A stretch of 64,000 bases of DNA from Candidatus Poribacteria bacterium (GCA_046582655.1 JAYGDX010000089.1:20129-84128); one strand, 5' to 3'. Positions 1 through 17,376 are shown, numbered from the stretch's first letter. Notes: generated by a model from the sequence alone, not told the origin. Translations and numbers: made by a program.

Positions 1-1443
1 CAATAATTAAACCAATATCATTTTCCTGACTGCTCTGCTTTGAGCTTGGCATATCGATGACTATAGTAAGCTTTTTACCATCAGGCCGGAGTCGAACCCC
101 ATCTTTATCTCGCTTCGTTAATCCCATTTCGTTCAACAAATTGTTTGCTTCTTCAATATTGAAATCTGCGTCTGCTTTCTTCCATCTTTCGAAAAGTTCC
201 TGTCCCATTGCATCAGTAAAGTGCCAACCCTCCTGACTTACCGTTGCTGCTTGTGCTTGCAACAGACCACGCCAAGCGATTTGATTGCACTTGTTCCGAT
301 CAATACCTAGCGCTAGAGCTTTACGGAAACGTTGATCCCGCATCAGTTTACGTAGTACCGGATCTGGATCGGTCCAATTGAGTAAGATCGCTGGTTGTGC
401 TCCAGCAGTGGTTTCCCACCTTAAGACTTTATAGTCCCCACGTTCTTGGCCTTCTATGTACAAGGCCAAGTCTCTTATCTCTGCTCCTCTAAACTGACAG
501 TCAATCTCACCAGCAAGGATTTTTAAGACCCGAACCTGAGGGTCCGGCACAAGACTGGTTTTGACCCTATCAATGTATGGCAGTTGTCGTCCTAGTGAAT
601 CGACCGCATAATAATATGGATTTCGCTCAAATTCGACTCGGTATCCACCTTTTGCGTTCTCAATCATCCTCCATGGCCATAACGTCGGCCGCTTTGGATT
701 CTGATGGTTCAAATCTCGCATTTGGAACTGCTTGAAGTTTTTGTATTCGGAATAATCTGGATGGAATTCAATCATGTAATGCCTGGGAATGTTGTATTTT
801 TCGGAATGCCAAAATCCAGTTCCCAACCATAGCGGTACCAACCAGTTTGGTCCGGCAAATTTCATAACAATAGTATAATCATCTGGCGTTTCAATCTCCA
901 TCGGTTCGCCGTCGACAAGACACCAAACTGGTGGCTCATAACTGTGACGTGTATCCAAACAAAGTTGATAGAAGAAAGCAAATGATTCGGAGGTAAAAGG
1001 GTGACCATCTGACCACCTTATTCCTCGACGCAAATGTATGGTTAATACGGAACCATCTTGGTTAAATTCCCAAGCTTCTGCTGTACCAGGTTCCAAACCT
1101 GAACAATCGAACTTCCAGCGAATCAACGGAGCGTACCCACCAATCATTTTCCAAGATCCAAGTTCGGGATGATTGTGGAACCTGTGCCAGGTACCACCGT
1201 AGATCCCAGGTTGCTCGTAGCCGTCAAAGTCAGTTTTCGCAACCAGTGGGTTTTCAGGAATCCGTTCTGCAAGTGATGGCAGTTTTCCTTCCTCCACCAT
1301 TCTAGTCAGCATCGGCGCTTCTCTGGCCTCTAAACCGTTTGGATAAGCTGATAGATCCTGCTTCCTCGCCGTTTGGTCTGAGCAACCAAAAATAAAAATA
1401 ATGCTACTCAGAAAAATATATCTGATTGTTTTGATCAATTTCA
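1..1443 (-). CDS. ABC transporter substrate-binding lipoprotein, family 5 (peptide/nickel, OppA/DppA-like). The C-terminus runs off the window start.
   Basis: My own minus-strand translation from the ATG at 1443 gives MKLIKTIRYIFLSSIIFIFGCSDQ..., a lipoprotein signal with an IFGC lipobox. The open frame continues to position 1. The composition is typical of SBP family 5. It sits 2 bp downstream of the VTC gene on the same strand. Confidence 0.75.
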
Positions 1444-1445
1444 TA

Positions 1446-2138
1446 TCAGGTTAGTGTTCTCTCGATTCCATTGACATATTTTGAATTCCTGGTCATCCTG
1501 AACGGAAAATGGTTAGTAATTGCATCTGCGCCCGCATCCTTACTGAAATCGTATTTCAGTTCAAGAACGGTGCTGATTTTATCTGAATCCTGTTGAAAAA
1601 GAGTTTGGGAATGTGAGTTTACTGTGTTGCATTCCATACCTGAATCGATAGTGATACGATAGTGCCCATCCCATGATCTATAGTATTTTCGGAGATAACG
1701 ATTCAGCAGATGGGGGTTCAAAGAAGAGACATATGCTTTTATCGAATCCGGAAGATCTGAATTTCTGATCAAACCGTTTATACCTCCCACCCCAATTTGT
1801 TGGTTAATCAAAAATGAGGATAACGGAAACAATTTTTTTGCACCGAGGAATCCTTTCTTAAACTTAAATTCTAACATGGGTTCTTTCACAGACCTAAAAA
1901 AACGACCATACCAGCGAATCCGAATTTTTATCCGATTTCTTAAACCTTCGACGCTGTCACGGTAGTTTCGCATTCCAAAGCTGTCAAGGTAAATATTGTT
2001 TACCCAACGTGGATGATGTATTTCGGAAAACATTGCTGGATGAAATCTAACAATTAGTTCTATCTCCTGTTGTGACAATTTAGACACAGCGAACTTCCGT
2101 TCGTAACGCCAAGTTTTGATATCAAACAGTTCTATCAT
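1446..2138 (-). CDS. VTC-domain (CYTH-like, polyphosphate-polymerase-like) protein
   Basis: The track ORF is 1446..2168. I prefer the internal ATG at 2138, giving MIELFDIKTWRYERKFAVS..., which is the usual start of bacterial VTC-domain proteins (the E-x-K-F CYTH-like N-terminal motif). It is co-located with CotH and DUF4956 genes. Confidence 0.6.
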   Translation of the reverse strand: MIELFDIKTWRYERKFAVSKLSQQEIELIVRFHPAMFSEIHHPRWVNNIYLDSFGMRNYRDSVEGLRNRIKIRIRWYGRFFRSVKEPMLEFKFKKGFLGAKKLFPLSSFLINQQIGVGGINGLIRNSDLPDSIKAYVSSLNPHLLNRYLRKYYRSWDGHYRITIDSGMECNTVNSHSQTLFQQDSDKISTVLELKYDFSKDAGADAITNHFPFRMTRNSKYVNGIERTLT

Positions 2139-2418
2139 GTTGCTTTTTGCCTTACATCTATTACTCAAAACAGATAGGGTGGGAAGAGTGGAAAGTCAAT
2201 TGCCACGAAAATCCAGAACCTAGGGTAACTACATTGGGTGACATTTGTCAGCAGATCTTTATAGAAAAAACGATATCGACGACGAGCAAAAAACATACCT
2301 AGATATCCAGTCAGTTGATTTATATTTTGAGAAATTAACTGGCATAGATCGAATCTCTTTTCTACAAATTAATGATGAGTGGAAAGCAGAAGGCAAACGG
2401 CAAAAAATTAACCAGAGA

Positions 2419-5070
2419 TCACAACATGCTCTTCTCATCTTTAACACCGTACAATATCTTTTTGACATCTTCTTGGTATGTGTTTATTTTCTTCTGATTG
2501 ATAACTATAGCCGACTTTTCTTCAACAAGGTACAATGTCTTTATATTTTCCATCTCAAGGTGTGTTGCCATTATCAGTCCACCGCTAAATTCCGGTTTTT
2601 TTTGAAAGGCTACCAAACCATAGTGGGAATTATCTATCTTGAGTTGATCAACGCTCACTTGAGATAGGTCTTTACTTGCCAAACCGATCTTGGCATTTTT
2701 AATATCCACTCGATGAACAAGCATTTCACTGTTCTCTCCAGCACTAAGTCCTTTATCGCCACATCCATCGATTGTAACATCTTTGACCTGAACTATACTG
2801 CCAGACACATCAATAGCATCATTCCCGCAATGTAAAAAAGATGATTCCATGACCTCACCTTCACAGAAATCGATATCAAGCGCATCAGAAAATGAATGGC
2901 TAAAAACCGTATTTCTAATCATGAATTCCGATCTCATAATATGGAGACTGTCCTCAGATCTTGAGCCAATGAACTGACAGTTGGCAATCTGAACTGGTGA
3001 TTCATAAAATGTAATTGCTCCTGTCAACTCCCAACCATTTTTTGCAGAGGCTGCCAAATTGTGAAACTTGACGAACTTTAGTACCGACTGCTCTGAAGAG
3101 CTCATAACCGTTAAACCCTGTCCCGACGAGTTGTCAGACGAAATGACAATCGGTTCCTCTTCGTTACCGATAAAATAGATCGAAGAGTAAGAAAGGATCG
3201 TAGCGGAATCGATTAAATTGATCTTTACACCTGACGGACAAACTAGATGATAGTCCTCCGGCACTATCAGGTCTTGATCAATCGTCCATGTTCCCCTTTG
3301 AATAGAAATTTGCTTTAATTCTTCGTTGATTTTCAAGAAATCAAATGCATGGATATTAGATGATTGCCGGATAAAATCATGCTTTGCGAAATCATTCCGC
3401 ATGTAAGACCAGGGAAAGACAGTTTCGGACCTTGTCTGATCCGTTCCCAAAATCCGGTAATTAATTTTTAGATTAGATCTCATACTATCATCCCACGCAA
3501 AATCTGCCGGAATCCCAAATTTGATGTTCTGATAATTTGTGAGTTTCCTCGGCACTTTGGCGGGAAGAATGATCTTCCCATTAGCTTGAAATGTAACTGA
3601 GTCCTTGTATGAAACGCTATCGACCTCAATTGGCAGGGGCTGGATGCTTGCTACCTGAAGCTCAATTTCATTTTCATCTACCCTATATTGATAGGCATGC
3701 AGTCCCTTGACAGGATTTAGAATTGCTTTAATGTATTCTTGGTTCTCTCTATACACCTTTTTCGAAAAATGAGGCCGAAAAAATTCACTTTTAAGAATAT
3801 TAAGATTAATAGCGAGATTTACATCTAAAGACGCGAACAGATTATCGAGATAAGCAGGTTCTGAAATCCGATTTAGCGCTTTGACATATCGACGAAAGAA
3901 TGTTTCATCGTAAAAAACCCTTGCATAATAGCTATGTCCAATTTGTGACGCATGGTTTCCAAGGTAATTTCCGTTAATTGTGGCACACAATGACCTAACA
4001 GGTTGACCTGCATTTCCATCAAACCCAATAGGCTGTAATTTCGAGGTTATAGGATTATAATAGAATCTTGCATTATGCCAACGTGAACCGTGTTCAGCTC
4101 CCATTAGATCGGTAAGAGCAAAGAATTTAGCCAGTTTCTCAACATCGAAAACCTGACTGGTCTTTAATTGTCCCCGACGAAATAACTCCAGTAGATGCAC
4201 TGCTTTGAGATACTGTTTGTGATTACTTGGTTTCGAAATCCACTTCGTTGTTTGAAATGTATCGATACCACTTGAGAGGTAAGACCCGCTGCTCATCTTA
4301 GCTTGATTAAATGCACTTTTTTGTGCTATTTCTTTCCAGAAAAATTCTTCATTGAATCTGACGATTGGTCCGTCATGTAACTGGTTATGACCTAAAAGAT
4401 ATTCGTCAAAATGTTCTTCTAAGGCATAAATGCCTAGATCCTCTTGGTTCAAGACAACTCTAATAAACTGATAACGCAACCCCAGAAGACCTTCTCTTCT
4501 CAATGTTTGATGGAAAAGCCATTCATTAAGATAATTCCGTGTTTTGGGATGATGTATGGAAAACCTTTTCATTCCCAAAATAGTGTTATTTCCTTTAACA
4601 ATGATTCGGAATGACCATTTTTTACCTTGAAGATGATCTATGTGGTCGCCTTTTAGGCGAAGTTTGACCTTTATTGCCTCATCTCCATGTTGTATCATCG
4701 CTGGAACATAGTCGGCTTTCGTAACAAACAATTTATCTTTTCTCAAAGCACGTTCTCTTTGAAGAGACAGGCTGCGAAAGTTTTTAGGCTTGATATCTAT
4801 TCGAATCTGATCTGCTTTTTTCGTTTGTCGTATTCGCGAGAAACTGACAGAGACAAAAATTGCAAACGAATCGCGAACCGATTTTATGTTATCCTCGAAT
4901 TCACTATAGCAATGACCTCCATAAATGAATATTAATAAGCTGTATACCATGAATAGAGAACCTATAAACAGGTAGAACGATAGTTTCCAAGATCGGGCAT
5001 TCTTGAGAAGCCAATTTTTTTTGCCCTTTAATGAAATCCAGTGCTGCCCATCGGAATTTTTGATTTCCAA
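2419..5070 (-). CDS. CotH kinase-family protein with an N-terminal membrane anchor and a C-terminal right-handed beta-helix-like region
   Basis: 883-aa ORF with a TTG start and GGAG 9 nt upstream. It has an N-terminal hydrophobic segment (SFYLFIGSLFMVYSLLIFIYGG). The central region has CotH-like motifs (HNQLHDGPIVRFNEEFFWKEIAQ..., GFDGNAG, YYNPITSKLQPIGFD). The C-terminal third resembles beta-helix repeats (NAKIGLASKDLSQVSVDQLKIDNSHYG, GNDAIDVSGS). Confidence 0.65.
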   Translation of the reverse strand: MEIKNSDGQHWISLKGKKNWLLKNARSWKLSFYLFIGSLFMVYSLLIFIYGGHCYSEFEDNIKSVRDSFAIFVSVSFSRIRQTKKADQIRIDIKPKNFRSLSLQRERALRKDKLFVTKADYVPAMIQHGDEAIKVKLRLKGDHIDHLQGKKWSFRIIVKGNNTILGMKRFSIHHPKTRNYLNEWLFHQTLRREGLLGLRYQFIRVVLNQEDLGIYALEEHFDEYLLGHNQLHDGPIVRFNEEFFWKEIAQKSAFNQAKMSSGSYLSSGIDTFQTTKWISKPSNHKQYLKAVHLLELFRRGQLKTSQVFDVEKLAKFFALTDLMGAEHGSRWHNARFYYNPITSKLQPIGFDGNAGQPVRSLCATINGNYLGNHASQIGHSYYARVFYDETFFRRYVKALNRISEPAYLDNLFASLDVNLAINLNILKSEFFRPHFSKKVYRENQEYIKAILNPVKGLHAYQYRVDENEIELQVASIQPLPIEVDSVSYKDSVTFQANGKIILPAKVPRKLTNYQNIKFGIPADFAWDDSMRSNLKINYRILGTDQTRSETVFPWSYMRNDFAKHDFIRQSSNIHAFDFLKINEELKQISIQRGTWTIDQDLIVPEDYHLVCPSGVKINLIDSATILSYSSIYFIGNEEEPIVISSDNSSGQGLTVMSSSEQSVLKFVKFHNLAASAKNGWELTGAITFYESPVQIANCQFIGSRSEDSLHIMRSEFMIRNTVFSHSFSDALDIDFCEGEVMESSFLHCGNDAIDVSGSIVQVKDVTIDGCGDKGLSAGENSEMLVHRVDIKNAKIGLASKDLSQVSVDQLKIDNSHYGLVAFQKKPEFSGGLIMATHLEMENIKTLYLVEEKSAIVINQKKINTYQEDVKKILYGVKDEKSML

Positions 5071-5107
5071 CTAATATGTCTCCATAGATGAGCGCCAGCA
5101 GATGGCG

Positions 5108-5785
5108 TTAGCTATTGTCTATAAATGAGATGCGCATTGAATCATTAAGCCCCTGCAACTCAGATTTACTCATCTCTAGTTGTGAATAATTCTCAAAACC
5201 AACCAGAAATGATGCTTCCAATAAATTCGAGTTTTCGTCAAATCTCTTTAAATTAACATCCGTACAATGCTTCTGAAGCACTTTGATGATAACATTAAGT
5301 TCGTTTCCATCCTGAGTTGGACTTGAAATTGTAAGATATAGGTTTTGGCCATTTTCCATATTATTTTGATTTATATTTCTCAGCCAGATTATCGCAATAA
5401 TTGTTAGTAATGTAACAATTGTGATGATAGCTTGATTTGCTCCAATACCCATCCCAATTGCAATAGTGAGAAACAGATATGAAAGTTCTTCTGGTTCTTT
5501 GATTGCTGTTCGGAACCTAATGATTGAAAGTGCGCCAATTAAGCCTAGCGAAAGTACGAGTGATGATTTTATAATTGTAATGATAAACATTGTTGTCATT
5601 GTAATCGGCAAAAAATTTCGAGCGAATTGTTTTCGGTTGGAGAGTGCTGATCCGTATTTGGCATAAACCCAACCTAAAACTAACGACAGAACTGCGGACA
5701 GAAACAGGTTGAAAATCATGATCCAAACGGAGACTTGTTCGGCCGCGTTAGCTGACAATTCTTGTAAGATCGGTAAATTTCTCAC
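5108..5785 (-). CDS. DUF4956-family integral membrane protein
   Basis: 225 aa, GTG start, several TM helices, and the characteristic IIRFRTAIKEPEE motif. It lies between the ABC ATPase and CotH genes. Confidence 0.6.
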   Translation of the reverse strand: MRNLPILQELSANAAEQVSVWIMIFNLFLSAVLSLVLGWVYAKYGSALSNRKQFARNFLPITMTTMFIITIIKSSLVLSLGLIGALSIIRFRTAIKEPEELSYLFLTIAIGMGIGANQAIITIVTLLTIIAIIWLRNINQNNMENGQNLYLTISSPTQDGNELNVIIKVLQKHCTDVNLKRFDENSNLLEASFLVGFENYSQLEMSKSELQGLNDSMRISFIDNS

Positions 5786-5876
5786 AAAGGAGTTATTAGC
5801 CTCATATCATGAGATCGTGAAATAATTGGATAGAGGGAGATTAATTTAACGTTGGTGATCAGTTGCATCTAACTTG

Positions 5877-6875
5877 CTAGATACCTTGAAGAGACAATTC
5901 ATCATGTAGATGACACGCTACCTCTGATCCTGATGTGGTCGTTTCAAGTCGCAGTTCCTCTCGCGAACATATATCCGTCGCATAGCCACATCGCGGATGG
6001 AAATGACATCCCAATGGGGGATTAGATGGATCTGGAACATCTCCTTCAAGTCTAATTCTTTTTCGTCCCCGTTGTATCTCTGGATCCGGCATTGGAACAG
6101 CCGATATCAGCGCTTCGGTATATGGATGTTTCGGATGATGGTAAACTTCGTGTGCAAGATTAGTTTCCACAATCCGACCAAGGTACATGACAGCAATACG
6201 GTCACTGATATGCTCTACAACACTTAAATCATGGGCGATGAAGATATAAGAAAGCTGAAATTCCTCCTTCAGTTCCTCCAGCAAGTTGAGAATCTGAGCT
6301 TGGATCGAAACATCCAGTGACGAAACTGGTTCATCCGCAATAATCAGTTCTGGTCGTAATGCTAATGCCCGTGCAATTCCAATCCTCTGTCGCTGTCCTC
6401 CGCTGAAAGCGTGTGGATAACGACGCATATCATCTTTCTGTAACCCGACTGATTCAAGCAAGTTAACAACTCGGTCTTCTGTTTCGGACCTATTTGAAAC
6501 TTGATTAACATAGAGGGGCTCAGCAACGATGTCACCAACAGTCATCCGTGGATTAAGAGACGAATATGGATCTTGAAAAATCATCTGTATTCTGCGTCTA
6601 TACGGCTTCAATTCGGCCTGAGTCAGTTGGCAGAAATCAATCTGCTCCTCACCAAACAAAACCTCGCCATCAGTTGGCTCTATTAGCCGCATCAAGCAGC
6701 GACCAGCTGTGGTTTTCCCACAGCCGCTTTCTCCAACCAATCCAAGGGTTTCGCCACGGTGCACATCAAAACTCACGCCATCTACCGCTTTTACATAGCC
6801 AGCCTGCTTTTGCAATATGCCACGTCGAATTGGAAAGTATTTCTTTAGGTTTTTAACTTGAAGAATTTTTCTCAT
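5877..6875 (-). CDS. Oligopeptide/dipeptide ABC transporter ATP-binding protein (OppF/DppF-like)
   Basis: Walker [10 protein letters not shown], the signature FSGGQRQR, Walker B LIIADEP, and a C-terminal oligo-HPY region ([15 protein letters not shown]). Confidence 0.85.
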
Positions 6876-6895
6876 GCTTTAATTTCACATACACT

Positions 6896-7888
<993 letters not shown>

Positions 7889-7938
7889 CTATTAATCCTG
7901 ATATAAATTTTAAATCAACATGACAGAATAGCAAGGAA

Positions 7939-10900
7939 CTAGTTTCCTGCTAATACCTTGAAGTTCCCAACATCCTCAAGAATTAGCAGGCCGAGACTAC
8001 TGGGAGGAACTGACTCAGTATTGGGCATTTGTTCGGCCCAATAAACCGATCGTTCATCTGACCGGTGAATGATGAAATTAAAACCCAGCTTATTGTTTCG
8101 TTTCATTTTTATGGGATCAAATCCTTTAAGTATAGGATAGAAAGGGAGGCGTGCCTCGATCATATAATAATTTTCCTGCTCAGTCACGGCTATTTGTAAT
8201 CCCTTAGCTTCATAATTCGGAACCAGTCTGGGTGCAGACTGTCCGAAATATGGCCGGCTACCATTAAAGCCGCCGCCCTTCGGACAAACCCAAAAAATGA
8301 ACCGATCCGAATCACCTTGGCTGTCGAGGTAATCAGGCCTGTGTTCATGTATCGGGTGGAGGTCAATATGGAGTTCAAGTGCATCAGAACCTTGATAGTA
8401 TCGAATTGGATCACCCACTTCAACTTGATTGTCATAAATTTGTGCTAGAAAGTATAGTGAGTCTTGATCCCATTGTAGCCACAATAGACCTTCATTTTTT
8501 GGAGTCACGATTGCCTTTTCGAGTGGCCATTGATCATCAAGACCATCAATGACGACGGGTTTATTGGTTCTTGCTGCCCAAGCAATCAAATTCGATCGGC
8601 ACATGGTTGTTATCTCAACATTTGTTTCACCAGTCTCAATTAAACGATCATCGTAAATCATGGCAATCATTTCCCCACCGGTCAATCCAAGCTCATTGGA
8701 TTCATTGATATCTCGTCCATATGCTGTTTGAATTGATCCACGAAATATCCGGGAATTTTTACTCTCTTCCAGAAGCACAATATGACTACCTGTTTCCATT
8801 TCATTGACCCGTACTCGCAAATTGGCTGATTCAGTTATAGAAGGGTCAACATTGAGATCCTGATCTTCCAAGCGGAAATAAAGTGTGGCGCCAATATTAA
8901 AATTCCGAAGCACTGAACCGTCTTTACGGGTGACAGTTAAATTGCCACGGATCCCTTTATTAGCGTAGGTAATATCCTCGACAGTTGTTGCGTTGATGGC
9001 ACTAAATTGAGGCGAATAGATGGCAGTTACTGCTTCTTCTCCTTGGACGTCAAGTGTGTCATCTGCGACTGCTGTTCTTCCATAGCGGGTTGGAACGACC
9101 CCCCAAAATACGCCGTTTTGGTTCGGCTTCTTTTCTAGTACTACATCAACCTGATCTTGTGTTCGGTTCCCATAAATAGTGATCGTCACTTCACTTGCGT
9201 CAACGACAGTACTGAGAAGAAGATCTTCAAGCCAGAAGTAAAGCAGATCTCCAGCCATAAAACTGCCGACTTCACTTTCATTGTCATCGGTAATCTTTAG
9301 AATGCCTTCATTACCGCTGAGCACAATAGCCTGCACCTTTGTCATTATTCCGGTTTCACCAGTTGCTGTGAGTGCGTCCAAATAGCTTATAGCAATCACT
9401 TCCTTATCAGTAAGCACCAATCCAATTGGATCGGTATTTGCCTGATTACTAGTTGTGAAGGTTCCTGCAAAGATACCGGAATTTTTGTTTGTTTCGTGCA
9501 GACTAATAACCTTCTCGTTTCCCAGTACATTTCCACGAACAGTTACTTTTGTTGACTCAATTTTTTCAGGAAAGAGATCTAAATCTTTATCAGTTAACCG
9601 AACCAACAGTTGTTCGCTATTATTGAAACTTCCGATACCAACAGAGAAATTGCTGATTAAACGAAGTGATTCGACAGTATAAATTTCAATATCACCGGTT
9701 TCTCCCACCGCTACCATCAGATCAACACGGATTTTCACCTGTGTTGCGCCGGTATCCTGTAAGGCATCAGTATACACAAAGGTGACAATGTCACCGCCTT
9801 GAACCTGCAGGACACCATCATTCACAATTGGGTTCGAGCCGTAATCAGTTTTTAGTCGACCGCGAAAGACACCTGCGTTTCCAAAAACCCCCCACATCGT
9901 TATCCTTATCCTATCACGAACCGTATTTTCGGTAAGATCGGTTTCGAATACCTGAGCCACTACGTTTGTTGTATCCAGATCTGCATCTTTGATTTCAAGG
10001 ATCAGCGTGTCACTCGCACGAAAACGGTTTATTGGAGAATTCAACATGGAATCTGGATTAAAACCTGATTCATTATAAACATGAATATTTCCAGTCGTCC
10101 CAACGTTTGTTTCACAGGTATCAACAATCTCGATATTTGTTTCACCAGTTGCCCTCAAACCATCAAGATAGACAGCCTGAATTTTTTCTGCCCCTTTTAC
10201 CTGAATTACTCCATCATCAATTTGCGCTTCGGTGCTATATAGCGTAGGAATAGAACCGGAAAAGTTCCCTTCGGCAGACGTCGAGAACAACACTAACTTC
10301 TCCCGATCGTTTAGCATATTACCACTAAGAGCAATCGCAATAACATCCTGAACGATGTCCTTATCACGAAGACGCAAGTGAAGCATGTTTCCAGCGTTGA
10401 AATTCTCCAGATCAGTCACCTGATTTGATTGTACAATCCCAATGATCCCATCATAGCCAGTCACGGCCTGAGCGACTCTCGAAATCAAGACTCCAGTCTC
10501 TCCGGAACCCCGAATTTGATCGACGTAACCAACCGTAACTTTTTCACCACCGACTACTTCGAGTTTATTGTTTTTAGTGTCAGCTTTTATTGCATATGTC
10601 GTTTCGACAGAGGCGATAAAAATACTGCTATCAGCATCGGTTTCAGTCAAAGCCAGTCTATATTGATCCTGTAATTGATCCCCTTCAATTATGACATCAA
10701 TGATTTCTTTTTGCGTTAAATCTTGATTGAGATCCGTATCTTGGAGTTCAATTTGTAGTGGAGTTCCTGCTTTGAAAAGCATGTCTCCGGGTATCAGTCT
10801 TCCGTTGATATTTAATTGTGCGGTATCGCCAATTTTTACCGTTTTTTGAGTTTGAATTGTTACATTGGCTTCACCTGTTTCTCGCAGTTGATCCACATAT

Positions 10901-13716
10901 ATGGCACTAATCGTCTGCATCCCAACTGCTTGAAGTATCATGTCATTTGGATCAGAAGTTTCACTGTAGACAGTTGTGAACTGTCCAGAATGATAGTTAT
11001 TTTCTGAATCAAACAAAAGTTTAAGTGATTCACTTTCATCAGTTCCGATTACTGCGAGCTCCACCTCGATCTCGCTACTTTTTGACACGTCGGCATCTTG
11101 AACAATAATATGAAGTTTCGAACCCAGTTCAATCATCTTAGCCGGTCGTTCGACATTATTAATGAAGATTTTACCGTCGTTCCCGCTGGTTGCAACCACT
11201 GTTGCTTCAACCAGCTTGTTTCGTTCGTCACGACTGAAATAGGGATCAATGTAAGTCAATAGAATTTCGTCATTTCCACGTACTTTTAATATATCCAACG
11301 AACTACCTTCTGCATCGGAAGTATCTCGCTCTTTTTCAAAGACTGTTACAACCCGAGTGGTGAACAGAGAACTATTTTCAGATCTATTACCCCTAACATC
11401 ATCAATTAGGGTAGTAAAATCAGTCTCATATAATGCAAGACGCATGGTTTGGCTAGTAGTGGTATTCGTTAATGCGGCTTGAATTGACTCCGACTCTGCG
11501 CGGTCGGTGTTACTATCTGCATCCCACACACATAAGCTAATTACATCACCCGCTGTAAAAGTGAATATGGGCATTAGCAACCGTTCATCCATAAACACAA
11601 CCCGACCGCTAATTTGGCTGACCAGTTCAATTACATTCCAATCACTGGGTGAAGCGTTTACATCACCAGATGCATAAGCAAAACTACGATCTCCCACAGA
11701 ATAGATGTAATTGAATCCAATCGATTTGCCAATGTCGGGAATATAATTCTGAAGAACCAGATCTTTTGGAAGACATACTTCTAGGTTATATCCCTTGTCT
11801 GTCGGCATGATTTTGGCGTCGATATATTTATGGAAGTTAATATTCTTAGGGATGGCATCCATGTGGTGGTGAATCTGGGTGGGATGAACGAAAAGTTGAT
11901 TTGTGTCCGATCCGTAGATTGTCAAAACGAAATGGTGGTCACTTGTTTTGTACATGCCAGTTGAAGCTTTTCTGGTAGAATCGCAAAAGATATGAATGAC
12001 ATCGCGATCCGTACTTTTAAGATCGGCATGTTTGATAGTAGCAGCAATATAAAAATTTTCTTCGTTCCATTGGGTGTAGAGCGTAACTAGATCTTGTATT
12101 GGTTTAGCATCTAAAAAACGGCCAAATTTTTTGGGATCCGGATCAATTTCACGTGCCATGTGTGGATACAAAAGGTGCCAATCTTCTATATAACCATCAA
12201 TTACGATCTCTTGATTCACCTTAATGGCACGACCAATCTGATCGTTTGACAATTGCTGAGACTTTACCATTTCAGAACCAGAGATTTTGATCGGTCGAGC
12301 TTCATATAGCCGTACTTCGGAAACGACTGCATTGGGACCGGCAATTCGATTAAAATGAAGTTCCATACGTCCGTCGGCATAGGCCTCAGAGGGAATGGGA
12401 ATAGTTCTTGTGCTGAAATCTCCTACAGGTATTTCAATTGCCGGATGAAGGATGTGCCCATCAACCAGAAGATCCTGAATACGTGTTCCACCATTCTCTT
12501 GCAGATATTCCACCTCTACCCAATAGAGCATCCAAGGTTTAAGTTGATTGTAGCCAACTTTTACAGCGTTATAATGGTAAGAGAAACTTCTGGCGGAATT
12601 AGGATTACCCGGATTAACTTTGTCAGGCTCTCCACCTTCAGCAAGAAAATATCGATTTTCGCCACTGGTATCCCGATCAAAGGCAAATCCCTGTATCAGG
12701 TGCGGAGCTAAGATGTTATTTGCCTCACCAAGCCGCTCATGTTGCATCTGGATAGCGTTGTAATCCCTAAGTTCCCTCTCTAAACTATTAGGACGATAGT
12801 CTTTAGTATAGACCTCAAATTCGCGAATCTCAGCATAATCACCATGCCAATCACCATTTTCAATTTGTAAACGAATATAACGTCCCTTCATCGGCATATC
12901 AAAGAGATGTTGATCTGCCACAGTCTCATCCGGTAATTCCTGAGATATATAGATATTCTGATAATCCTGTCCATTCGAACTGATAGCAATTGAGTAGGTC
13001 TTAACGTTGTCTCCGGGACCATCAGTAGTCAGCTGAAACCCGTATATCTTTTGAATTTCGCCGATATCTGCGGTAACATAAACAGGTGTTTCCGGCGGTT
13101 TGTATTTTATCTCAACTTCTTCCCCTCCGTCCTCGACTTCAGTTTCTATTCGTTGCGCCGCCGCCCATTTTGAATCTCTGAAAGGAATTAGATCCTTTAG
13201 CATAGACAACTCAACTTCATTATAATTGGAAGTCATCGATTGAATGGGTGTATGGGATTTGTATCTTAATCCAACTTGAAAATCATCGACTTTTAAATTC
13301 GGTCTATTATTAAACCAGTCATTGATCACAACCTGAATCCAACGCGCTTCAGTTGGAAACTGAAAACGCTGCAGCGCGAAATTGTATTCACGTGAACTAC
13401 CAACATAAGAAAAGGCACGTGTAAAACGTGATTTCGATCTGTCCTTTCCTACTAATATATCAAACTGTTTCGGTCCACTTTCATTTGGGTCTTCAAATCG
13501 AACCTTAACTTTGTCAACCAGGTAGACATAACCGAGATCATAGGTGGCAAAGGGAGGGTCGCTCCTGAGCAAATCTGCCGACCGGAGGGATTCATCATCC
13601 ATCTTGCGAACGGGCTTGATGAAGTATTGGTTTGTTCTCAGATTAACTTTATTTCGCGGATAAAACAGAAAACCTAGTAGGATTGCGATACTGCTGAGGA
13701 AAAGATACTTAGCCAC
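7939..13716 (-). CDS. Giant (1925 aa) repetitive cell-surface protein. It has an N-terminal signal anchor, discoidin-like and CBM9/DOMON-like domains, about 12 tandem ~110-aa beta-sandwich repeats, and a C-terminal CBM9-like domain.
   Basis: A single uninterrupted ORF. The N-terminus is MAKYLFLSSIAILLGFLFYP. Internal repeats share the motif ...NSGIF.G.I.T.YG....DDGVLQVQGGE.I.A.Y.D.L..TGET.V.I... at least 12 times. F5/8-C-like segments end in ...IREFEVY. CBM9-like segments include WHLLYPHM and LWLQWDQDSLYFLAQIYD. Confidence 0.85.
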   Translation of the reverse strand: MAKYLFLSSIAILLGFLFYPRNKVNLRTNQYFIKPVRKMDDESLRSADLLRSDPPFATYDLGYVYLVDKVKVRFEDPNESGPKQFDILVGKDRSKSRFTRAFSYVGSSREYNFALQRFQFPTEARWIQVVINDWFNNRPNLKVDDFQVGLRYKSHTPIQSMTSNYNEVELSMLKDLIPFRDSKWAAAQRIETEVEDGGEEVEIKYKPPETPVYVTADIGEIQKIYGFQLTTDGPGDNVKTYSIAISSNGQDYQNIYISQELPDETVADQHLFDMPMKGRYIRLQIENGDWHGDYAEIREFEVYTKDYRPNSLERELRDYNAIQMQHERLGEANNILAPHLIQGFAFDRDTSGENRYFLAEGGEPDKVNPGNPNSARSFSYHYNAVKVGYNQLKPWMLYWVEVEYLQENGGTRIQDLLVDGHILHPAIEIPVGDFSTRTIPIPSEAYADGRMELHFNRIAGPNAVVSEVRLYEARPIKISGSEMVKSQQLSNDQIGRAIKVNQEIVIDGYIEDWHLLYPHMAREIDPDPKKFGRFLDAKPIQDLVTLYTQWNEENFYIAATIKHADLKSTDRDVIHIFCDSTRKASTGMYKTSDHHFVLTIYGSDTNQLFVHPTQIHHHMDAIPKNINFHKYIDAKIMPTDKGYNLEVCLPKDLVLQNYIPDIGKSIGFNYIYSVGDRSFAYASGDVNASPSDWNVIELVSQISGRVVFMDERLLMPIFTFTAGDVISLCVWDADSNTDRAESESIQAALTNTTTSQTMRLALYETDFTTLIDDVRGNRSENSSLFTTRVVTVFEKERDTSDAEGSSLDILKVRGNDEILLTYIDPYFSRDERNKLVEATVVATSGNDGKIFINNVERPAKMIELGSKLHIIVQDADVSKSSEIEVELAVIGTDESESLKLLFDSENNYHSGQFTTVYSETSDPNDMILQAVGMQTISAIYVDQLRETGEANVTIQTQKTVKIGDTAQLNINGRLIPGDMLFKAGTPLQIELQDTDLNQDLTQKEIIDVIIEGDQLQDQYRLALTETDADSSIFIASVETTYAIKADTKNNKLEVVGGEKVTVGYVDQIRGSGETGVLISRVAQAVTGYDGIIGIVQSNQVTDLENFNAGNMLHLRLRDKDIVQDVIAIALSGNMLNDREKLVLFSTSAEGNFSGSIPTLYSTEAQIDDGVIQVKGAEKIQAVYLDGLRATGETNIEIVDTCETNVGTTGNIHVYNESGFNPDSMLNSPINRFRASDTLILEIKDADLDTTNVVAQVFETDLTENTVRDRIRITMWGVFGNAGVFRGRLKTDYGSNPIVNDGVLQVQGGDIVTFVYTDALQDTGATQVKIRVDLMVAVGETGDIEIYTVESLRLISNFSVGIGSFNNSEQLLVRLTDKDLDLFPEKIESTKVTVRGNVLGNEKVISLHETNKNSGIFAGTFTTSNQANTDPIGLVLTDKEVIAISYLDALTATGETGIMTKVQAIVLSGNEGILKITDDNESEVGSFMAGDLLYFWLEDLLLSTVVDASEVTITIYGNRTQDQVDVVLEKKPNQNGVFWGVVPTRYGRTAVADDTLDVQGEEAVTAIYSPQFSAINATTVEDITYANKGIRGNLTVTRKDGSVLRNFNIGATLYFRLEDQDLNVDPSITESANLRVRVNEMETGSHIVLLEESKNSRIFRGSIQTAYGRDINESNELGLTGGEMIAMIYDDRLIETGETNVEITTMCRSNLIAWAARTNKPVVIDGLDDQWPLEKAIVTPKNEGLLWLQWDQDSLYFLAQIYDNQVEVGDPIRYYQGSDALELHIDLHPIHEHRPDYLDSQGDSDRFIFWVCPKGGGFNGSRPYFGQSAPRLVPNYEAKGLQIAVTEQENYYMIEARLPFYPILKGFDPIKMKRNNKLGFNFIIHRSDERSVYWAEQMPNTESVPPSSLGLLILEDVGNFKVLAGN

Positions 13717-13728
13717 AAAGCTAACCCT

Positions 13729-16128
13729 TTATACTATGTCAAGAGAATTTTTTAATTCTTGAAGCCGACGACTAATTTTTTGCTTGTCAATTCGGTTCCC
13801 GTCAACGTATTCCCTTAACTCATGCGGCAAATTTGGTGGAACCATCGACCGGGAATTTGCTTCACGAAGTGCCAAAAGTCCCATAAATTCGTTCATCTCA
13901 GGTGAATGTTCAGGAACATAGTCGTCCATGGTTCGATTTAGATCTTCTTGGGACACAACCTCACGTTCATGCCGTTTGGCAAGGTTATAGCTTCTCAGCA
14001 CAATACGTTCAAGATCTCCACCGCTCAGTCTACGTGTCGCTCGGTTAGCTTGGCTAAAATCAATGCCATCAACGGAAATCTGATGTTTTCTGAAAAGTTT
14101 CTCCAGAATATCAGCACGTTCCTGACCGGTTGGCCGCAGCAAAATTAATCGATGATCAAAGATACCACGTTGTCGAAACACCGGATCAATGGCATCGGGG
14201 CGGTTTGATGCACCAATCCAGAGAATTTTACCGTGGTATTCTGGATCACTGATCATATTGGTCAGTTCAGCGGGCAACATACTGTTTGGTGTTTGCACGC
14301 CATTACTAACATGTGGGTTGCTTACCAAATCGATTTCGTCTACAAAAACAATTACCGGTATTACGGCTTGAACAAAACTAAGTGCCATCCTTAAATCGCT
14401 TTGATACGATTTTCCATCACCCGCCATTGGTCTCTCAATACCAATCCATTCCCGTGGACTTTTAAGTCGAACAAATGTCAATCCACTGTATCTTGCAATC
14501 ATCTGAGCTAACAAGGTCTTACCGGTACCAGGTGGTCCTAGCAACAACAACCCCCGCGGTGCACGCTTCAGATCACCTTGATGGATAGCGGACATGATAT
14601 CTCTCATTATCTCACCAACGTGTCTCATACCACCGACCACTGAGCGATCGTAGGGAGTCGGCACAACTTCTAGTAGACCTCGACTGTGAGTCTCGACATT
14701 CTCACGTCGATACTGAGCAATTAGCGTTGGAGTAATCGGTTCACGCACCTCCTCTGCTCGCAAGGCAACGTCATGGATACCAAAGAGGGTAAGACCTGCG
14801 GTATCTCGGGCAGCTTGTTCAATCGTTAAATCTGGGTGAAGTTTTATCTGTGTCGTAATTTGCGCTCGTGAATCTGGATTGGTCTGAACAGGCAAGCTGA
14901 TCAAGTGATTAATAAATTCAAATCGATCATTGTAATCCGGAAAAGGAATTTCCACTACCGGCACATCACTATTTTTCGTCAATACTGGGTGGACATCGGT
15001 GATATCATGTGCTACCATCAAGAAAAGGTGCTTTTTCAGTCTTATATCGAAGTCCGCTGCCCACCTCTGCAATGTATCCAAAAACGTCGTGGTCTCTTTT
15101 GGGAGTACAGACATTTCCCCACTTGGCGCGACTTTCTCTGTATAGAACATCACCAACCCAACCTTGTATCTTACAGTATTGAAAAGTGTATTAAGCTGAT
15201 TTAACCAATCAGAGGTTATTGGGAGCTTACCAGAGCCAATGAAGGGGTCTTCATGCATCTTCTCGTGAATTACACCGGAGTTGATTTTCGTGCGATGCGG
15301 GTCAACTTCACGTTCAGAAACAATCTCCCACTGAGCATCTTCAATTTCTACCGGATTACCACTCGAGTCCTCGCCAGCAAGTTTGAATTTATAGGGTTCC
15401 CTTGGTTTTATCTCTCTTGGCATTTCCTCAAATTTGATTTTGGTAAGTTCCCCAGGAATAACTACGATCTCATCAGACTCAGCATTCACATTATGTACTT
15501 GAACAGTGATCTTGCCCTTGCCTGCCTTTGAAGCAGTAAAAACACCATCAGGGGTTATGTCACCAATTCCTCCTTCAACTTTCCAGCGCGCCTGTTGAAT
15601 CCCAATTGAACGATTCGATCCGTCAAAACCGGTTAATTTTAGCCGGATTTTTTGACCAGATTCTATTTCAAATTGTTGAGGTGAAATTTCAAGCTGCTCA
15701 ATCTGGTCATCCGTAATACGGAACCGTGGTGATTCGGTACGCACATTGCCAACTGAAGCACGGATTCGCCCTAGCCCCAGTTCCTCTGCTATAAACGTTC
15801 CCTGCCCATCAAATTGACCGACAGAGGGTAAACCCCCCTGCATCTCACCAACCCATTTAACATCCTCACTAACCAACCCAAGTGAACGTTGGATCCATTT
15901 CCAATGGTCTATTTGCGGCCAAATAATTCCTTGTGAAGGTGTATACCCAAGAACAATATCACACCCAACCATATTCAATTGTTCCATGAGATAATAGAAT
16001 ATGGGTAAATACCCATGTTCCGCGTCTTTTGCCAAGTCATATGTATTATAGTGAAGCATAAACATATGGGCAGAACCTGCTTTGTACTCTTTGGCAATCC
16101 TATCAAAAAAGCTGGGCATTTCCCTCAT
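13729..16128 (-). CDS. AAA+ ATPase (classic clade) with an N-terminal domain of unknown function and two bacterial Ig-like (Big_2-like) domains
   Basis: 799 aa with no signal peptide. Walker A LLLGPPGTGKTLLAQ, Walker B VIVFVDEIDLV, and an SRH region NRPDAIDPVFRQRGIFDHRLIL. Ig-like segments include GKGKITVQVHNVNAESDEIVV. It ends 12 bp upstream of the giant-protein gene. Confidence 0.8.
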   Translation of the reverse strand: MREMPSFFDRIAKEYKAGSAHMFMLHYNTYDLAKDAEHGYLPIFYYLMEQLNMVGCDIVLGYTPSQGIIWPQIDHWKWIQRSLGLVSEDVKWVGEMQGGLPSVGQFDGQGTFIAEELGLGRIRASVGNVRTESPRFRITDDQIEQLEISPQQFEIESGQKIRLKLTGFDGSNRSIGIQQARWKVEGGIGDITPDGVFTASKAGKGKITVQVHNVNAESDEIVVIPGELTKIKFEEMPREIKPREPYKFKLAGEDSSGNPVEIEDAQWEIVSEREVDPHRTKINSGVIHEKMHEDPFIGSGKLPITSDWLNQLNTLFNTVRYKVGLVMFYTEKVAPSGEMSVLPKETTTFLDTLQRWAADFDIRLKKHLFLMVAHDITDVHPVLTKNSDVPVVEIPFPDYNDRFEFINHLISLPVQTNPDSRAQITTQIKLHPDLTIEQAARDTAGLTLFGIHDVALRAEEVREPITPTLIAQYRRENVETHSRGLLEVVPTPYDRSVVGGMRHVGEIMRDIMSAIHQGDLKRAPRGLLLLGPPGTGKTLLAQMIARYSGLTFVRLKSPREWIGIERPMAGDGKSYQSDLRMALSFVQAVIPVIVFVDEIDLVSNPHVSNGVQTPNSMLPAELTNMISDPEYHGKILWIGASNRPDAIDPVFRQRGIFDHRLILLRPTGQERADILEKLFRKHQISVDGIDFSQANRATRRLSGGDLERIVLRSYNLAKRHEREVVSQEDLNRTMDDYVPEHSPEMNEFMGLLALREANSRSMVPPNLPHELREYVDGNRIDKQKISRRLQELKNSLDIV

Positions 16129-16544
16129 CTTAATCCTAGGGTTTCATTGTCCTTATCATAATAGCATGGCCACTATCAATTAGCAAGACTTTGCTTACGC
16201 TCGTTTAAAGAGTTTAACCTTCTAAAGTGAGCTAGATTCTGACCAAAGGAATTAGCATACTAAAGAAGAAGATAGAGAGCCTGGATTCGAAGTTGCTAGG
16301 ATTATCCAGCTCGAAAAAATTGCACCTCCGAACCCTGAACTACTCTCCCAAACTCAGGATTCAGGGCAACTGGTGGGTTGGATAACAACTCCAATTCCCT
16401 AAAAGATGATTCAAGAATTACCAATGCCTGGAATGCTACTAGGACTCATTGAGGTTGGGAATAAAGTCCAGAGCATCAAGAAATTGCTGATATCCCCTTT
16501 ATCGGTCCTCGAGCACATTACCTGTCACGAATTAATAGACCTCT

Positions 16545-17376
16545 TGCAAAAGTAGAAAGAAATGCTAGAATGAAAGATGGGATACCAAGAGATAAAAGAT
16601 AAATCAGGATCAGATTATAAGCGATTGACTGGAGTTAGCCCACAGACCTTCCATCAGATGCGACAAATGTTAGAACAGTCCCAACCTCGGAGGGAACGAC
16701 CAGCTAAACTGAGTTGTGCCGATCAATTGTTAATGACCTTGATGTACCGGCATGAATACCAGACTTAGTTTCACCTTGCCCAAAGCTATCGCCCAAGCGG
16801 AGCCACTGTTTGTCGCACCATAGCGAAAGAGGAAGACTGATTGATACAATCAGAACAGTTCCGATTGCCGGGTAAGAAGAAACTGCTAGAGAGTGACAAG
16901 CAAATTTAAGTCTTGTTAGTAGATGCCACCGAGCAACCAATTGAACGGCCGAAAAAAACAAGGACAATATTACAGTGGCAAAAAGCGGCATACGCAGAAA
17001 GCACAATTGGTGATAAATTTAGCCTTCCGACAGATCCTGTTCACCACTTTTGACAGCGGAAGGAAACATGATTTCCAGTTGTTTAAGAACAGCTAGACAA
17101 AGATTTAGAGGACAACTCTGTTGTTTGTCTGATTCAGGTTACCAGGGACTATCCAAGTTGCATAGCAACAGTTGGTTGCCAAAAAAGCAATCCAAACATC
17201 GGCCCCTGAGCCAGAAGGGGGAAGCCTCTAATAGAGATTTAGCCCGAGGCCGTATTTATGTTGAACATGTAATTGGCAAGTTAAAAGTCTTTGGCATCCT
17301 GTGCCAGCGTTATCGAGACCATCGCCGGTGTCTTTCACTACTGCTTTAACCTGATAGCTTCTATCTACAATTTGGA
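16545..17376 (+). mobile_element. Degenerate IS5-family (DDE_Tnp_4 / IS1031-like) insertion sequence remnant
   Basis: Transposase fragments lie in different frames (see the pseudogene entry). Candidate imperfect terminal inverted repeats are ttgcaaaagtagaaagaaatgcta (16545..) and tccaaattgtagatagaagcta (reverse complement of 17355..17376). At about 830 bp it is short for an IS5 element, which fits internal deletions. Confidence 0.45.
16577..17349 (+). pseudogene. IS5-family DDE transposase, disrupted by frameshifts and stops
   Basis: The N-terminal fragment reads MGYQEIKDKSGSDYKRLTGVSPQTFHQMRQMLEQ...LSCADQLLMTLMYRHEYQT. The middle fragment, in another frame, reads LLVDATEQPIERPKKQGQYYSGKKRHTQKAQLV. 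The C-terminal fragment reads DSGYQG...RGRIYVEHVIGKLKVFGILCQRYR. All are typical of DDE_Tnp_4 transposases. Confidence 0.6.

Follow-up and report, generated by a model that had tools for sequence, protein, structure and literature searches.

A DUF4956-CotH-VTC cassette between oppF and oppA in a Candidatus Poribacteria lineage: a probable insertion into a conserved importer operon

In the eukaryotic VTC complex, the tunnel domain of Vtc4 is coupled to a membrane channel. Bacterial sets of cotH, a polyphosphate polymerase gene (VTC) and a DUF4956 gene have been described beside pel operons in Streptococci, Clostridia and Bifidobacteria (Whitfield et al., bioRxiv 10.1101/768473). The window studied here, the whole stretch of 64,000 nucleotides of Candidatus Poribacteria DNA that was analysed, carries the same three protein families in a contiguous and co-directional cassette (5785..1446). 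The cassettes of the relatives examined lie mostly in surface-polysaccharide clusters, whereas that of the window interrupts an ABC-importer operon and has no glycosyltransferase in its vicinity; its CotH is anchored in the membrane at the N-terminus and carries a beta-helix at the C-terminus, and the optional partner gene in cassettes of the window type is a gene here called X, not DUF4832. Like the eukaryotic VTC complex, the cassette pairs a VTC catalytic domain with a polytopic membrane protein, but the two are separate polypeptides, DUF4956 takes the place of the DUF202-type VTC transmembrane domain, and there is no SPX domain. The position of the VTC gene beside a gene for a polytopic membrane protein suggests that a putative synthesis step may be coupled to a membrane step. 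The surrounding transporter shares with Opp/Dpp importers (peptide/nickel/opine, solute-binding protein family 5) its two oligo_HPY ATPases, an SBP_bac_5 lipoprotein and OppB/OppC-type permeases, but departs from the Opp/Dpp model in its order, D-F-A-B-C instead of A-B-C-D-F, and in an interruption of 4.3 kb.

ORF calls and a Pfam search bear out the earlier note's description of eight co-directional minus-strand genes and their domains (Table 1). The gaps between neighbouring ORFs are as it listed them (12, 50, 20, 91, 37 and 250 bp), except that VTC and oppA are separated by 1 bp and not 2 bp. Tight co-directional gene strings are common in bacteria, so this spacing is unsurprising by itself. 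The VTC start appears better placed at the conserved ATG at 2138 than at the TTG at 2168, because the region around the TTG is deleted in a diverged relative (L092), and the CotH-VTC spacer is therefore 280 bp when measured from the conserved ATG. The OppA ORF (N-terminus MKLIKTIRYIFLSSIIFIFGC) is cut by the window edge and comprises codons 1-481 of 646. On contigs identical to the window, the sequence beyond position 1 encodes the full OppA (646 aa), OppB (328 aa) and OppC (372 aa), where the earlier note had supposed that the permeases might lie, followed by a PotA/MalK-type ATPase with a TOBE_2 domain. An assembly chimera is excluded by the recurrence of this arrangement: at least six independent assemblies have it (L001-L006), as do three diverged lineages (L007/L091, L092).

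Table 1 Features of the gene string and its upstream flank, in window coordinates.
Feature	Coordinates	Strand	Domains and remarks
AAA+ ATPase, 799 aa	16128..13729	-	Pfam AAA, E 1e-19
Giant protein, membrane-anchored, 1925 aa	13716..7939	-	Pfam F5/8 type C + CBM9, ~11 repeated modules
OppD-type ABC ATPase	7888..6896	-	ABC_tran + oligo_HPY
OppF-type ABC ATPase	6875..5877	-	ABC_tran + oligo_HPY
DUF4956 polytopic membrane protein	5785..5108	-	Pfam DUF4956, E 1e-17
CotH kinase-like domain + C-terminal right-handed beta-helix, membrane-anchored	5070..2419	-	Pfam CotH, Beta_helix
Non-coding CotH-VTC spacer	2139..2418	-	Conserved core of ~84 nt at 2242-2325
VTC (triphosphate-tunnel, polyphosphate-polymerase-like) protein	2138..1446 (TTG start: 2168)	-	Pfam VTC, E 7e-22
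OppA-type family-5 solute-binding lipoprotein	1444..1	-	SBP_bac_5, E 4e-45
Decayed IS element, frameshifted DDE transposase	16560..17349	+	

The Opp/Dpp component set is thus complete, with SBP_bac_5 in the window and the OppB/OppC permeases past its edge on the identical contigs. Both ATPases combine ABC_tran and oligo_HPY (E 1e-17 and 2e-19); the best NCBIfam match of OppD is OppD/DppD, and OppF, of DppF/OppF type, matched the NCBIfam dipeptide ATPase subfamily model over its cut-off. The orthologous transporter has the contiguous D-F-A-B-C order at 25 further loci, which span five or more phyla (Poribacteria, Gemmatimonadota, Latescibacterota, Armatimonadota and others), and the same order is seen in a more distant Planctomycetota relative. 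Across the 25 loci OppA is 51-77% identical (71-77% in sponge Poribacteria), and OppD orthologues of 58-71% identity stand at the start of the operon. The order in the window, D-F-(cassette)-A-B-C, does not match the A-B-C-D-F order of E. coli/Salmonella that the earlier note had taken as its baseline; given the 25 loci, D-F-A-B-C is a trait of this transporter family, and the interruption alone is lineage-specific. Judged by this conserved order, the cassette alone is misplaced, and no permease is missing.

What the transporter carries is less certain than its family. Full-length matches of OppA include Thermotoga maritima 5ipw (E 1e-80) and SPH1118 (E 8e-70); among solved structures these two, together with an alpha-galactoside-binding protein, are its nearest. 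SPH1118, from Sphingomonas sp. A1, binds pectin oligosaccharides and hardly any peptide mixtures (PMC9314435), and because this closest characterised relative is an oligosaccharide binder, the label "peptide" is not safe for the transporter. None of the window opp proteins reached the cut-off of an NCBIfam equivalog. The opp orthologues of sponge Poribacteria lie near an aminopeptidase P gene. The evidence on substrate is conflicting, and the assignment uncertain.

We then compared the junction at which the window operon is split by 4.3 kb of unrelated genes, whose upstream edge is the 3' end of oppF. In relatives, oppF is followed directly by oppA or, in sponge Poribacteria, by an intervening NTase-HepT gene (8 loci; L009 retains the scar of a deletion). 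The NTase-HepT insert is toxin-antitoxin-like and unrelated to the cassette. DUF4956-CotH-VTC occupies the junction only in the window lineage (L001-L007, L091 and L092), in three species-level variants; the D-F/(DUF4956-CotH-VTC)/A arrangement, whose recurrence the earlier note had raised as a question, is thus found again within this lineage and is absent from the 25 other opp loci. The 1-bp VTC-oppA junction is common to L007, L091 and L092. No flanking direct or inverted repeats, no adjoining integrase or transposase and no plasmid homologues were found for the cassette; its composition is not deviant (GC3 of 0.34-0.39 versus 0.35-0.40 for opp), and dS within the lineage is similar for cassette and opp genes. 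The sole IS remnant lies 11 kb from the cassette, upstream of the AAA gene.

Outside the window lineage, the cassette occurs without orthologous opp genes in ~80 loci. The order DUF4956-CotH-(X)-VTC is the same in more than 50 other loci that lack the orthologous opp flank, and in most cassettes CotH directly follows DUF4956. Three of the four Pfam-annotated loci (L087, L089 and L142) have GT2/GT4, sulfotransferase, deacetylase, Wzx flippase, CapD and DegT genes in their flanks, while the fourth (L086) has radical-SAM neighbours; the polysaccharide-cluster setting was seen in another Poribacteria MAG as well as in other phyla. The window cassette, flanked by oppF and oppA, has no such exopolysaccharide-gene setting. 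Outside the lineage even its nearest relatives share no more than 49-54% identity with it, and dN/dS within the lineage is 0.12-0.17 for DUF4956, 0.13-0.18 for CotH and 0.20-0.31 for VTC. Old as it is, the cassette remains under purifying selection.

The third component is the AAA ATPase and giant-protein pair, of which the AAA ATPase belongs to a small family (~40 homologues of 39-52% identity). In one locus (L171), a 50%-identical AAA orthologue is followed by an orthologue of the giant protein, a 2000-aa protein that is 50% identical over its full length, and then by BamA/TamB on the opposite strand, with no opp genes; a giant protein upstream of OppD occurs only in the window lineage (L007, L091, L092). 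By this comparison the pair is a separately conserved two-gene unit outside the opp unit, and not the head of the opp operon that the earlier note had made of it. The IS remnant, some 430 bp from the AAA gene on its upstream side, contains an ORF at 17050-17349 that matches DDE_Tnp_4 (E 1e-8) and DDE_Tnp_1. The remnant shows that a rearrangement boundary lies where the gene string begins. On reading the sequence by eye, the remainder of the IS continues in upstream frames broken by stops.

Because the AAA-giant pair, the opp genes and the cassette are each found apart elsewhere, we consider it likely that the string is a mosaic of three independently conserved units, with the cassette inserted into the oppF-oppA junction. 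Of the two readings that the earlier note had offered for the split operon, it is nested insertion that the contiguous opp loci and the opp-free cassettes support.

The cassette proteins themselves are recognizable members of their families. CotH scores 38.3 bits against PF08757 (cut-off 23.8), and sequence-only searches of the PDB gave no match for it. In its AlphaFold model (pLDDT 83), residues ~90-450 have the Bacillus cereus spore-coat kinase structures 5jda/5jd9 as top Foldseek match (E 1e-10, probability 1.0; TM 0.63 on the target 5jda at 15% sequence identity), and the C-terminal half matches polysaccharide-active beta-helix enzymes, so that the predicted structure confirmed a CotH kinase fold joined to a polysaccharide-type beta-helix. 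The window protein thus shares with Bacillus CotH the Pfam domain and the predicted fold, but it is membrane-anchored and fused to the beta-helix, and its host phylum is not known as a spore-former; the locus showed no sporulation genes. The polysaccharide-cluster context of its relatives and the beta-helix fusion argue for a putative substrate other than spore-coat proteins. VTC scores 78.5 bits against PF09359 (cut-off 23) over profile positions 2-232 of 235, with no solved relative detectable by sequence.

Between CotH and VTC, ~14 loci carry gene X (~356 aa). X shows metallophosphoesterase-like motifs by eye and has no Pfam match. A tblastn comparison of X with the window spacer gave 26.9 bits, a score reached by none of 1000 shuffles, and an X profile HMM gave a weak signal of 3.7 bits, which 6 of 500 shuffles attained. 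The spacer measures 280, 183 and 117 bp in the three lineages and may be what remains of this optional fourth cassette gene. Between lineages its 84-nt core (2242-2325) is 74-88% identical, compared with 64-74% for CotH four-fold degenerate sites, and the core could act as an internal promoter. No fold signal was found in the spacer. The earlier note had considered that this gap might divide two units; consensus scans found in it no terminator match and, on the coding strand, no sigma-70-type promoter match, strong or otherwise.

Transcription of the string was assessed from spacing and consensus scans. No terminator match or terminator-like hairpin was found in any intergenic gap by sequence scan, and since VTC abuts oppA by 1 bp, the cassette is probably co-transcribed with opp. 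Read-through from oppDF to oppABC is favoured by the fact that the ATPases, permeases and binding protein of an ABC importer are needed together. VTC-oppABC, and probably the whole of oppDF-cassette-oppABC, are most likely read as one transcript. It is possible, if on the unlikely side, that the string is instead no single operon and comprises several transcription units with their own promoters, for example AAA-giant, oppDF (with or without DUF4956-CotH) and VTC-oppABC-ATPase. Consistent with such a division, the giant-oppD spacer (50-57 bp) contains a conserved -10-like TATAAT/TAAAAT and an AGGA ribosome-binding motif, the core of the CotH-VTC spacer is conserved above the CotH four-fold degenerate sites, and the AAA-giant pair is autonomous elsewhere. 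The lack of hairpins in the gaps and of a sigma-70-type match in the CotH-VTC spacer speak against it, as does the number of promoter-like matches over the region, 46 versus 41.6 +/- 6.5 in shuffles and thus no commoner than chance, although the consensus may not suit Poribacteria promoters.

A second alternative, also put forward in the earlier note, is that cassette and transporter, perhaps with the giant surface protein, form one system, in which for example CotH would phosphorylate the giant protein, OppA or a surface glycan by means of VTC/DUF4956 polyphosphate and the importer would take up the products. Close spacing, the 1-bp VTC-oppA junction kept in three lineages and purifying selection on all parts would fit such coupling, as would carbohydrate-related features common to several parts (the CBM9 and F5/8C domains of the giant protein, the polysaccharide-type CotH beta-helix and an OppA resembling a pectin-oligosaccharide binder). 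The association is, however, limited to one lineage: the 25 orthologous opp operons have no cassette, the ~80 cassette loci outside the lineage have no orthologous opp genes, and the AAA-giant pair is found without either. The unrelated toxin-antitoxin-like gene at the same junction in sister lineages, moreover, indicates that the slot tolerates unrelated cargo. With nothing in favour of coupling beyond probable co-transcription, we regard it as improbable.

That the cassette's position is ancestral, the remnant of an old opp-cassette operon lost in all other lineages, is very hard to credit: although the cassette borders bear no insertion scars or mobile-element genes and its GC3 and dS cannot be told apart from the values of the adjoining opp genes, this would need many independent precise losses at the 25 loci in at least five phyla, each leaving D-F-A-B-C intact, and it is at odds both with the low identity of cassette relatives outside the lineage (49-54%, versus 71-77% for OppA of sponge Poribacteria) and with the different home context of the cassette in polysaccharide clusters of another Poribacteria MAG and other phyla.

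Under the mosaic reading, three units came to stand in line in this free-living (pelagic, marine) lineage of Candidatus Poribacteria: an AAA ATPase with a giant carbohydrate-binding surface protein, an Opp/Dpp-family ABC importer whose native oppD-F-A-B-C order is widely conserved, and the DUF4956-CotH-VTC cassette, placed into the oppF-oppA junction of the second. This junction would simply be a permissive slot, because sponge Poribacteria carry the unrelated NTase-HepT gene there. The insertion would be older than the split of the three sampled species-level lineages, and the cassette would have stayed functional, its fourth gene probably lost with a spacer of 117-280 bp left behind. We infer that VTC, a cytoplasmic tunnel enzyme, and the membrane protein DUF4956 could supply phosphate or polyphosphate chemistry to CotH, and that the membrane-anchored, outward-facing CotH kinase/beta-helix protein might act on a surface glycan, while the transporter would import an oligosaccharide or peptide independently of the cassette. 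The presence of the cassette within the opp operon would then be a case of ordinary operon mosaicism, and not proof that kinase and transporter cooperate.

Eight co-directional open reading frames (ORFs) occupy the minus strand between positions 1 and 16128 (see the table), and their Pfam assignments agree with the domain labels that the earlier note had read from the sequence. Its intergenic distances were also reproduced, except that VTC and oppA are separated by 1 bp rather than 2 bp, and CotH and VTC by 280 bp when measured, as we do here, from the conserved VTC start at ATG 2138 (the region of the alternative TTG at 2168 is deleted in the relative L092). An exact-protein look-up found this ATG-start form of VTC on record and led to several hydrothermal-plume assemblies and MAGs that contain this contig (L001-L006) and whose proteins are annotated by NCBI as Candidatus Poribacteria. 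On these contigs, which are identical to the window, the order downstream of VTC is OppA (646 aa), OppB (BPD_transp_1), OppC (OppC_N and BPD_transp_1), a PotA/MalK-type ATPase carrying TOBE_2, and a NUDIX gene. The permeases suspected to lie beyond position 1 are thus present, and the transporter is therefore complete, with the layout oppD-F-[DUF4956-CotH-VTC]-A-B-C. A chimeric assembly was ruled out, as at least six assemblies and three diverged lineages share the layout. A plus-strand ORF at 2245..2667 (140 aa, no Pfam hit), running antisense over the 3' end of CotH into the adjoining spacer, was treated as probably spurious.

Coordinates of the eight minus-strand genes in the window
Feature	Position	Strand	Basis
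AAA ATPase	16128..13729	-	Pfam
1925-aa giant protein, F5/8 type C and CBM9 domains	13716..7939	-	Pfam
ABC ATPase (OppD-like) with C-terminal oligo_HPY region	7888..6896	-	Pfam
ABC ATPase (OppF-like) with C-terminal oligo_HPY region	6875..5877	-	Pfam
DUF4956 protein	5785..5108	-	Pfam
CotH with right-handed beta-helix	5070..2419	-	Pfam
VTC protein	2168/2138..1446	-	Pfam
SBP_bac_5 protein (OppA), lipoprotein-type N-terminus, cut by window edge	1444..1	-	Pfam

One genome per GTDB species was scanned with an alignment of OppA, an unusually conserved protein (50-77% identity across several phyla), and each of the eleven proteins was then run against the loci by tblastn. The operon is contiguous, in the order D-F-A-B-C, in 25 loci whose OppA is 51-77% identical, drawn from sponge-associated Poribacteria, Gemmatimonadota, Latescibacterota, Chthonomonadales/Armatimonadota and unclassified MAGs. 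This order was also found in Poriferisphaera (Planctomycetota; 39% identity) and in many alphaproteobacterial relatives (~33% identity), while Chloroflexi relatives have A-B-C-D-F. Since the orthologues share D-F-A-B-C, this is the native order of the transporter family, and the A-B-C-D-F arrangement that the earlier note had taken as its baseline is inapplicable here. The window's interrupted layout, together with the giant gene upstream of oppD, was found at only one locus of the OppA-based scan, L007 (Poribacteria MAG NP41, OppA 87% identical). Within ±10 kb of the 25 orthologous loci, we found neither the AAA ATPase-giant protein gene pair, nor the DUF4956-CotH-VTC cassette, nor the PotA/MalK-like gene. 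Sponge Poribacteria have a conserved neighbourhood of their own (AstE-type deacylase, aminopeptidase P, ECF sigma factor, oppDFABC, SDR), and none of these four non-opp neighbours occurs in the 64-kb window; the whole opp neighbourhood is rearranged in the pelagic lineage.

Two further observations concern this transporter block. The PotA/UgpC/MalK-type ABC ATPase gene (TOBE_2; L001:14787-15878, operon strand) lies 57 bp after oppC with no cognate permease or binding protein gene adjoining, and it is kept in L007, L091 and L092 and absent from all other orthologous opp loci. Separately, OppA and OppB are 60-77% identical across Poribacteria, Gemmatimonadota, Latescibacterota and others (L008-L039), which is unusually high between phyla, and the opp loci of Poribacteria and those of Gemmatimonadota type repeatedly have an ECF sigma factor on the upstream side and an SDR on the downstream side. 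The shared flanks and the high identity suggest that a larger block has spread horizontally.

Metagenomes commonly contain homologues of the CotH protein (883 aa), with only 49-54% identity outside the window lineage (the window with L001-L006, L007/L091, and L092). Scanning metagenomes with an alignment of CotH yielded 80 loci, which were then typed by tblastn, and in more than 50 of these the order DUF4956-CotH-[X]-VTC was kept, X being an optional fourth gene. Flanking opp and giant genes were found at two of the 80 loci, L091 and L092, which belong to the window lineage because their CotH is 80-85% identical to that of the window. Elsewhere the surroundings differ: in a KSB1 MAG (L087/L088) and in L089/L090, DUF4956-CotH-(X)-VTC stands amid GT2/GT4 glycosyltransferases, a sulfotransferase and a polysaccharide deacetylase, and in a different Poribacteria MAG (L086) DUF4956 (identified by tblastn)-CotH-X-VTC is followed by radical-SAM genes. 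Using glycosyltransferase and polysaccharide-enzyme queries in tblastn, we found polysaccharide-related neighbours in 13 of 32 long cassette loci; this is a lower bound, as L142, without tblastn glycosyltransferase hits, is still a polysaccharide cluster by Pfam (Wzx flippase, CapD-like, DegT and nucleotidyltransferase neighbours). The cassette is widespread and usually linked to surface-polysaccharide loci, in agreement with the published finding that cotH, a polyphosphate polymerase gene and DUF4956 directly adjoin the pel operons of Gram-positive bacteria as a set of accessory genes (bioRxiv 10.1101/768473). The cassette has thus already been noted in the literature, and the gene string adds one more case of operon mosaicism, a familiar process. 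Between the two explanations offered for the split operon, a nested insertion is supported, with opp contiguous in the 25 orthologous loci and the cassette found elsewhere without opp flanks, while functional coupling is not, given that the association of cassette and opp is limited to the window lineage.

The junction that received the cassette has been occupied in sister lineages as well. In eight sponge-Poribacteria loci (L008:8944-9888, L026:8992-9951, L010, L012, L013, L014, L028 and L038), a 315-320-aa gene with fused nucleotidyltransferase (Polbeta) and HepT-like domains, a combination as in toxin-antitoxin systems, lies between oppF and oppA. At L009:9896-9960 only the first ~20 codons of this gene are left, fused in frame to the OppA signal peptide as a deletion scar, and in L011, L016, L025 and L037 the junction carries no insert. 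That sister lineages carry two unrelated inserts at one junction speaks for a permissive slot, and not for cooperation between its cargo and the transporter. An intra-operon site of a widely shared D-F-A-B-C operon, independently hit twice, offers a neat example of such permissiveness.

Values of dN/dS, dS and GC3 were compared between the window lineage and both L007/L091 and L092. The dN/dS ratio was 0.06-0.14 for the opp genes, 0.12-0.17 for DUF4956, 0.13-0.18 for CotH and 0.20-0.31 for VTC, and all genes had similar dS; it follows that the cassette is functional and older than the split of the three lineages. A GC dip (0.36-0.39 versus 0.42-0.46) was rejected as a signature of foreign DNA or recent transfer, because it stems from codon positions 1-2 and vanishes at third positions (GC3 of 0.34-0.39 in the cassette versus 0.35-0.40 in opp). 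Around the cassette there are no flanking repeats beyond chance-length matches, and PLSDB returned no DNA or protein match indicating plasmid carriage.

The CotH/VTC spacer measures 280, 183 or 117 bp within the window lineage and lies exactly where X stands in other loci; in relatives without X, CotH and VTC are usually within ~50 bp or overlap. Comparing X with the spacer by tblastn gave 26.9 bits at X residues ~196-249, a score reached by 0 of 1000 dinucleotide shuffles, and a profile of 15 X homologues gave a weak 3.7 bits (reached by 6 of 500 shuffles), so that the spacer is a possible relic of X. An 84-nt core (2242-2325) is 74-88% identical between the three lineages, which exceeds the identity at four-fold degenerate sites of the flanking genes (64-74% in CotH), and could reflect a regulatory element. 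The spacer shows no significant RNA fold (z-score -1.09), and no Rfam family matched anywhere in the window. Gene X itself encodes ~356 aa with a signal peptide and a C-terminal transmembrane helix, and is found between CotH and VTC in ~14 loci (for example L089:9588-10658 and L086:2902-3996, with four tandem copies in L130:10598-14497); GDN...GNHD metallophosphoesterase-like motifs were seen by eye, with no Pfam hit.

A strong terminator and promoter in the CotH/VTC spacer, separating the units, would have counted for the earlier note as a refutation, and they were not found: the spacer has no terminator or sigma-70-type promoter match on the coding strand. None of the intergenic gaps holds a terminator-like hairpin, and promoter-like matches are no commoner than in shuffled sequence. 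VTC and oppA are 1 bp apart in all lineages, oppA/B and oppB/C overlap, and an ABC importer needs all its parts expressed together; from these features we infer that transcription runs through the cassette, from oppD as far as oppC. The giant/oppD spacer holds a conserved -10-like motif and an AGGA ribosome-binding motif, which suggest that transcription of opp may begin there, independently of the AAA-giant pair.

The AAA-giant pair had been read as the head of the opp operon, and it is instead a unit of its own. The AAA protein belongs to a very small family. In L171:10001-18479, on a 6.27-Mb contig, a gap of 86 bp separates a 50% identical orthologue from the next gene, whose 2000-aa product and the giant protein of the window share 50% identity along the full length, with BamA (Omp85/POTRA) and TamB genes next on the opposite strand. 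Recurrence of the pair here and its absence near the 25 opp loci establish this independence. Two further AAA homologues stand alone, and the family includes shorter 615-aa forms without a giant partner. About 430 bp upstream of the AAA gene lies a decayed IS element (16560-17349, plus strand), whose ORF at 17050-17349 matches DDE_Tnp_4 and DDE_Tnp_1 and whose upstream part is broken by frameshifts and stops; AT skew is unusual (+0.13 to +0.16) at 16000-17500.

The label of peptide importer holds for the importer part, and the peptide part is doubtful. Among solved structures, the best relatives of OppA include T. maritima 5ipw, SPH1118, which binds pectin oligosaccharides, and a protein that binds alpha-galactosides; 5ipw is without a known peptide complex and SPH1118 barely binds peptide mixtures (PMC9314435). 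An aminopeptidase P gene, on the other hand, lies within the opp neighbourhood of the sponge lineage, and both oligosaccharides and peptides are candidate substrates of this very conserved protein.

For CotH, sequence and profile searches against PDB gave no match (nor did they for VTC), and CotH was recovered by fold search only: its AlphaFold model (pLDDT 83) best matched the B. cereus CotH kinase (E 1e-10), and its C-terminal half matched polysaccharide-active beta-helix enzymes, including a GH87 glucanase, alginate epimerases, polygalacturonases and phage depolymerases. Near its N-terminus, basic residues precede a membrane helix, and most of the protein is therefore probably outward-facing. 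With this beta-helix fold and the polysaccharide-cluster context, modification of a surface glycan is our best guess for what the cassette does, and the combination of a polysaccharide-type beta-helix on a kinase with polysaccharide-locus linkage gives the hypothesis of action on glycans a sharper form. VTC and the membrane protein DUF4956 would supply phosphate or polyphosphate chemistry, if the eukaryotic VTC complex is taken as a model.

The gene string combines three units, each conserved independently, in a mosaic specific to this lineage. It cautions annotators that a tight co-directional string of eight genes can comprise three unrelated units, and guilt by association of the CotH/VTC/DUF4956 cassette with peptide transport would be wrong here. 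We consider it very improbable that the insertion is adaptive and a true functional unit in pelagic Poribacteria, in which a polyphosphate-fed, outward CotH/beta-helix enzyme with expression tied to the importer would modify either a glycan of the surface or the giant CBM-bearing protein encoded nearby. If so, surface-glycan remodelling would be coupled to oligosaccharide uptake during life on marine particles.
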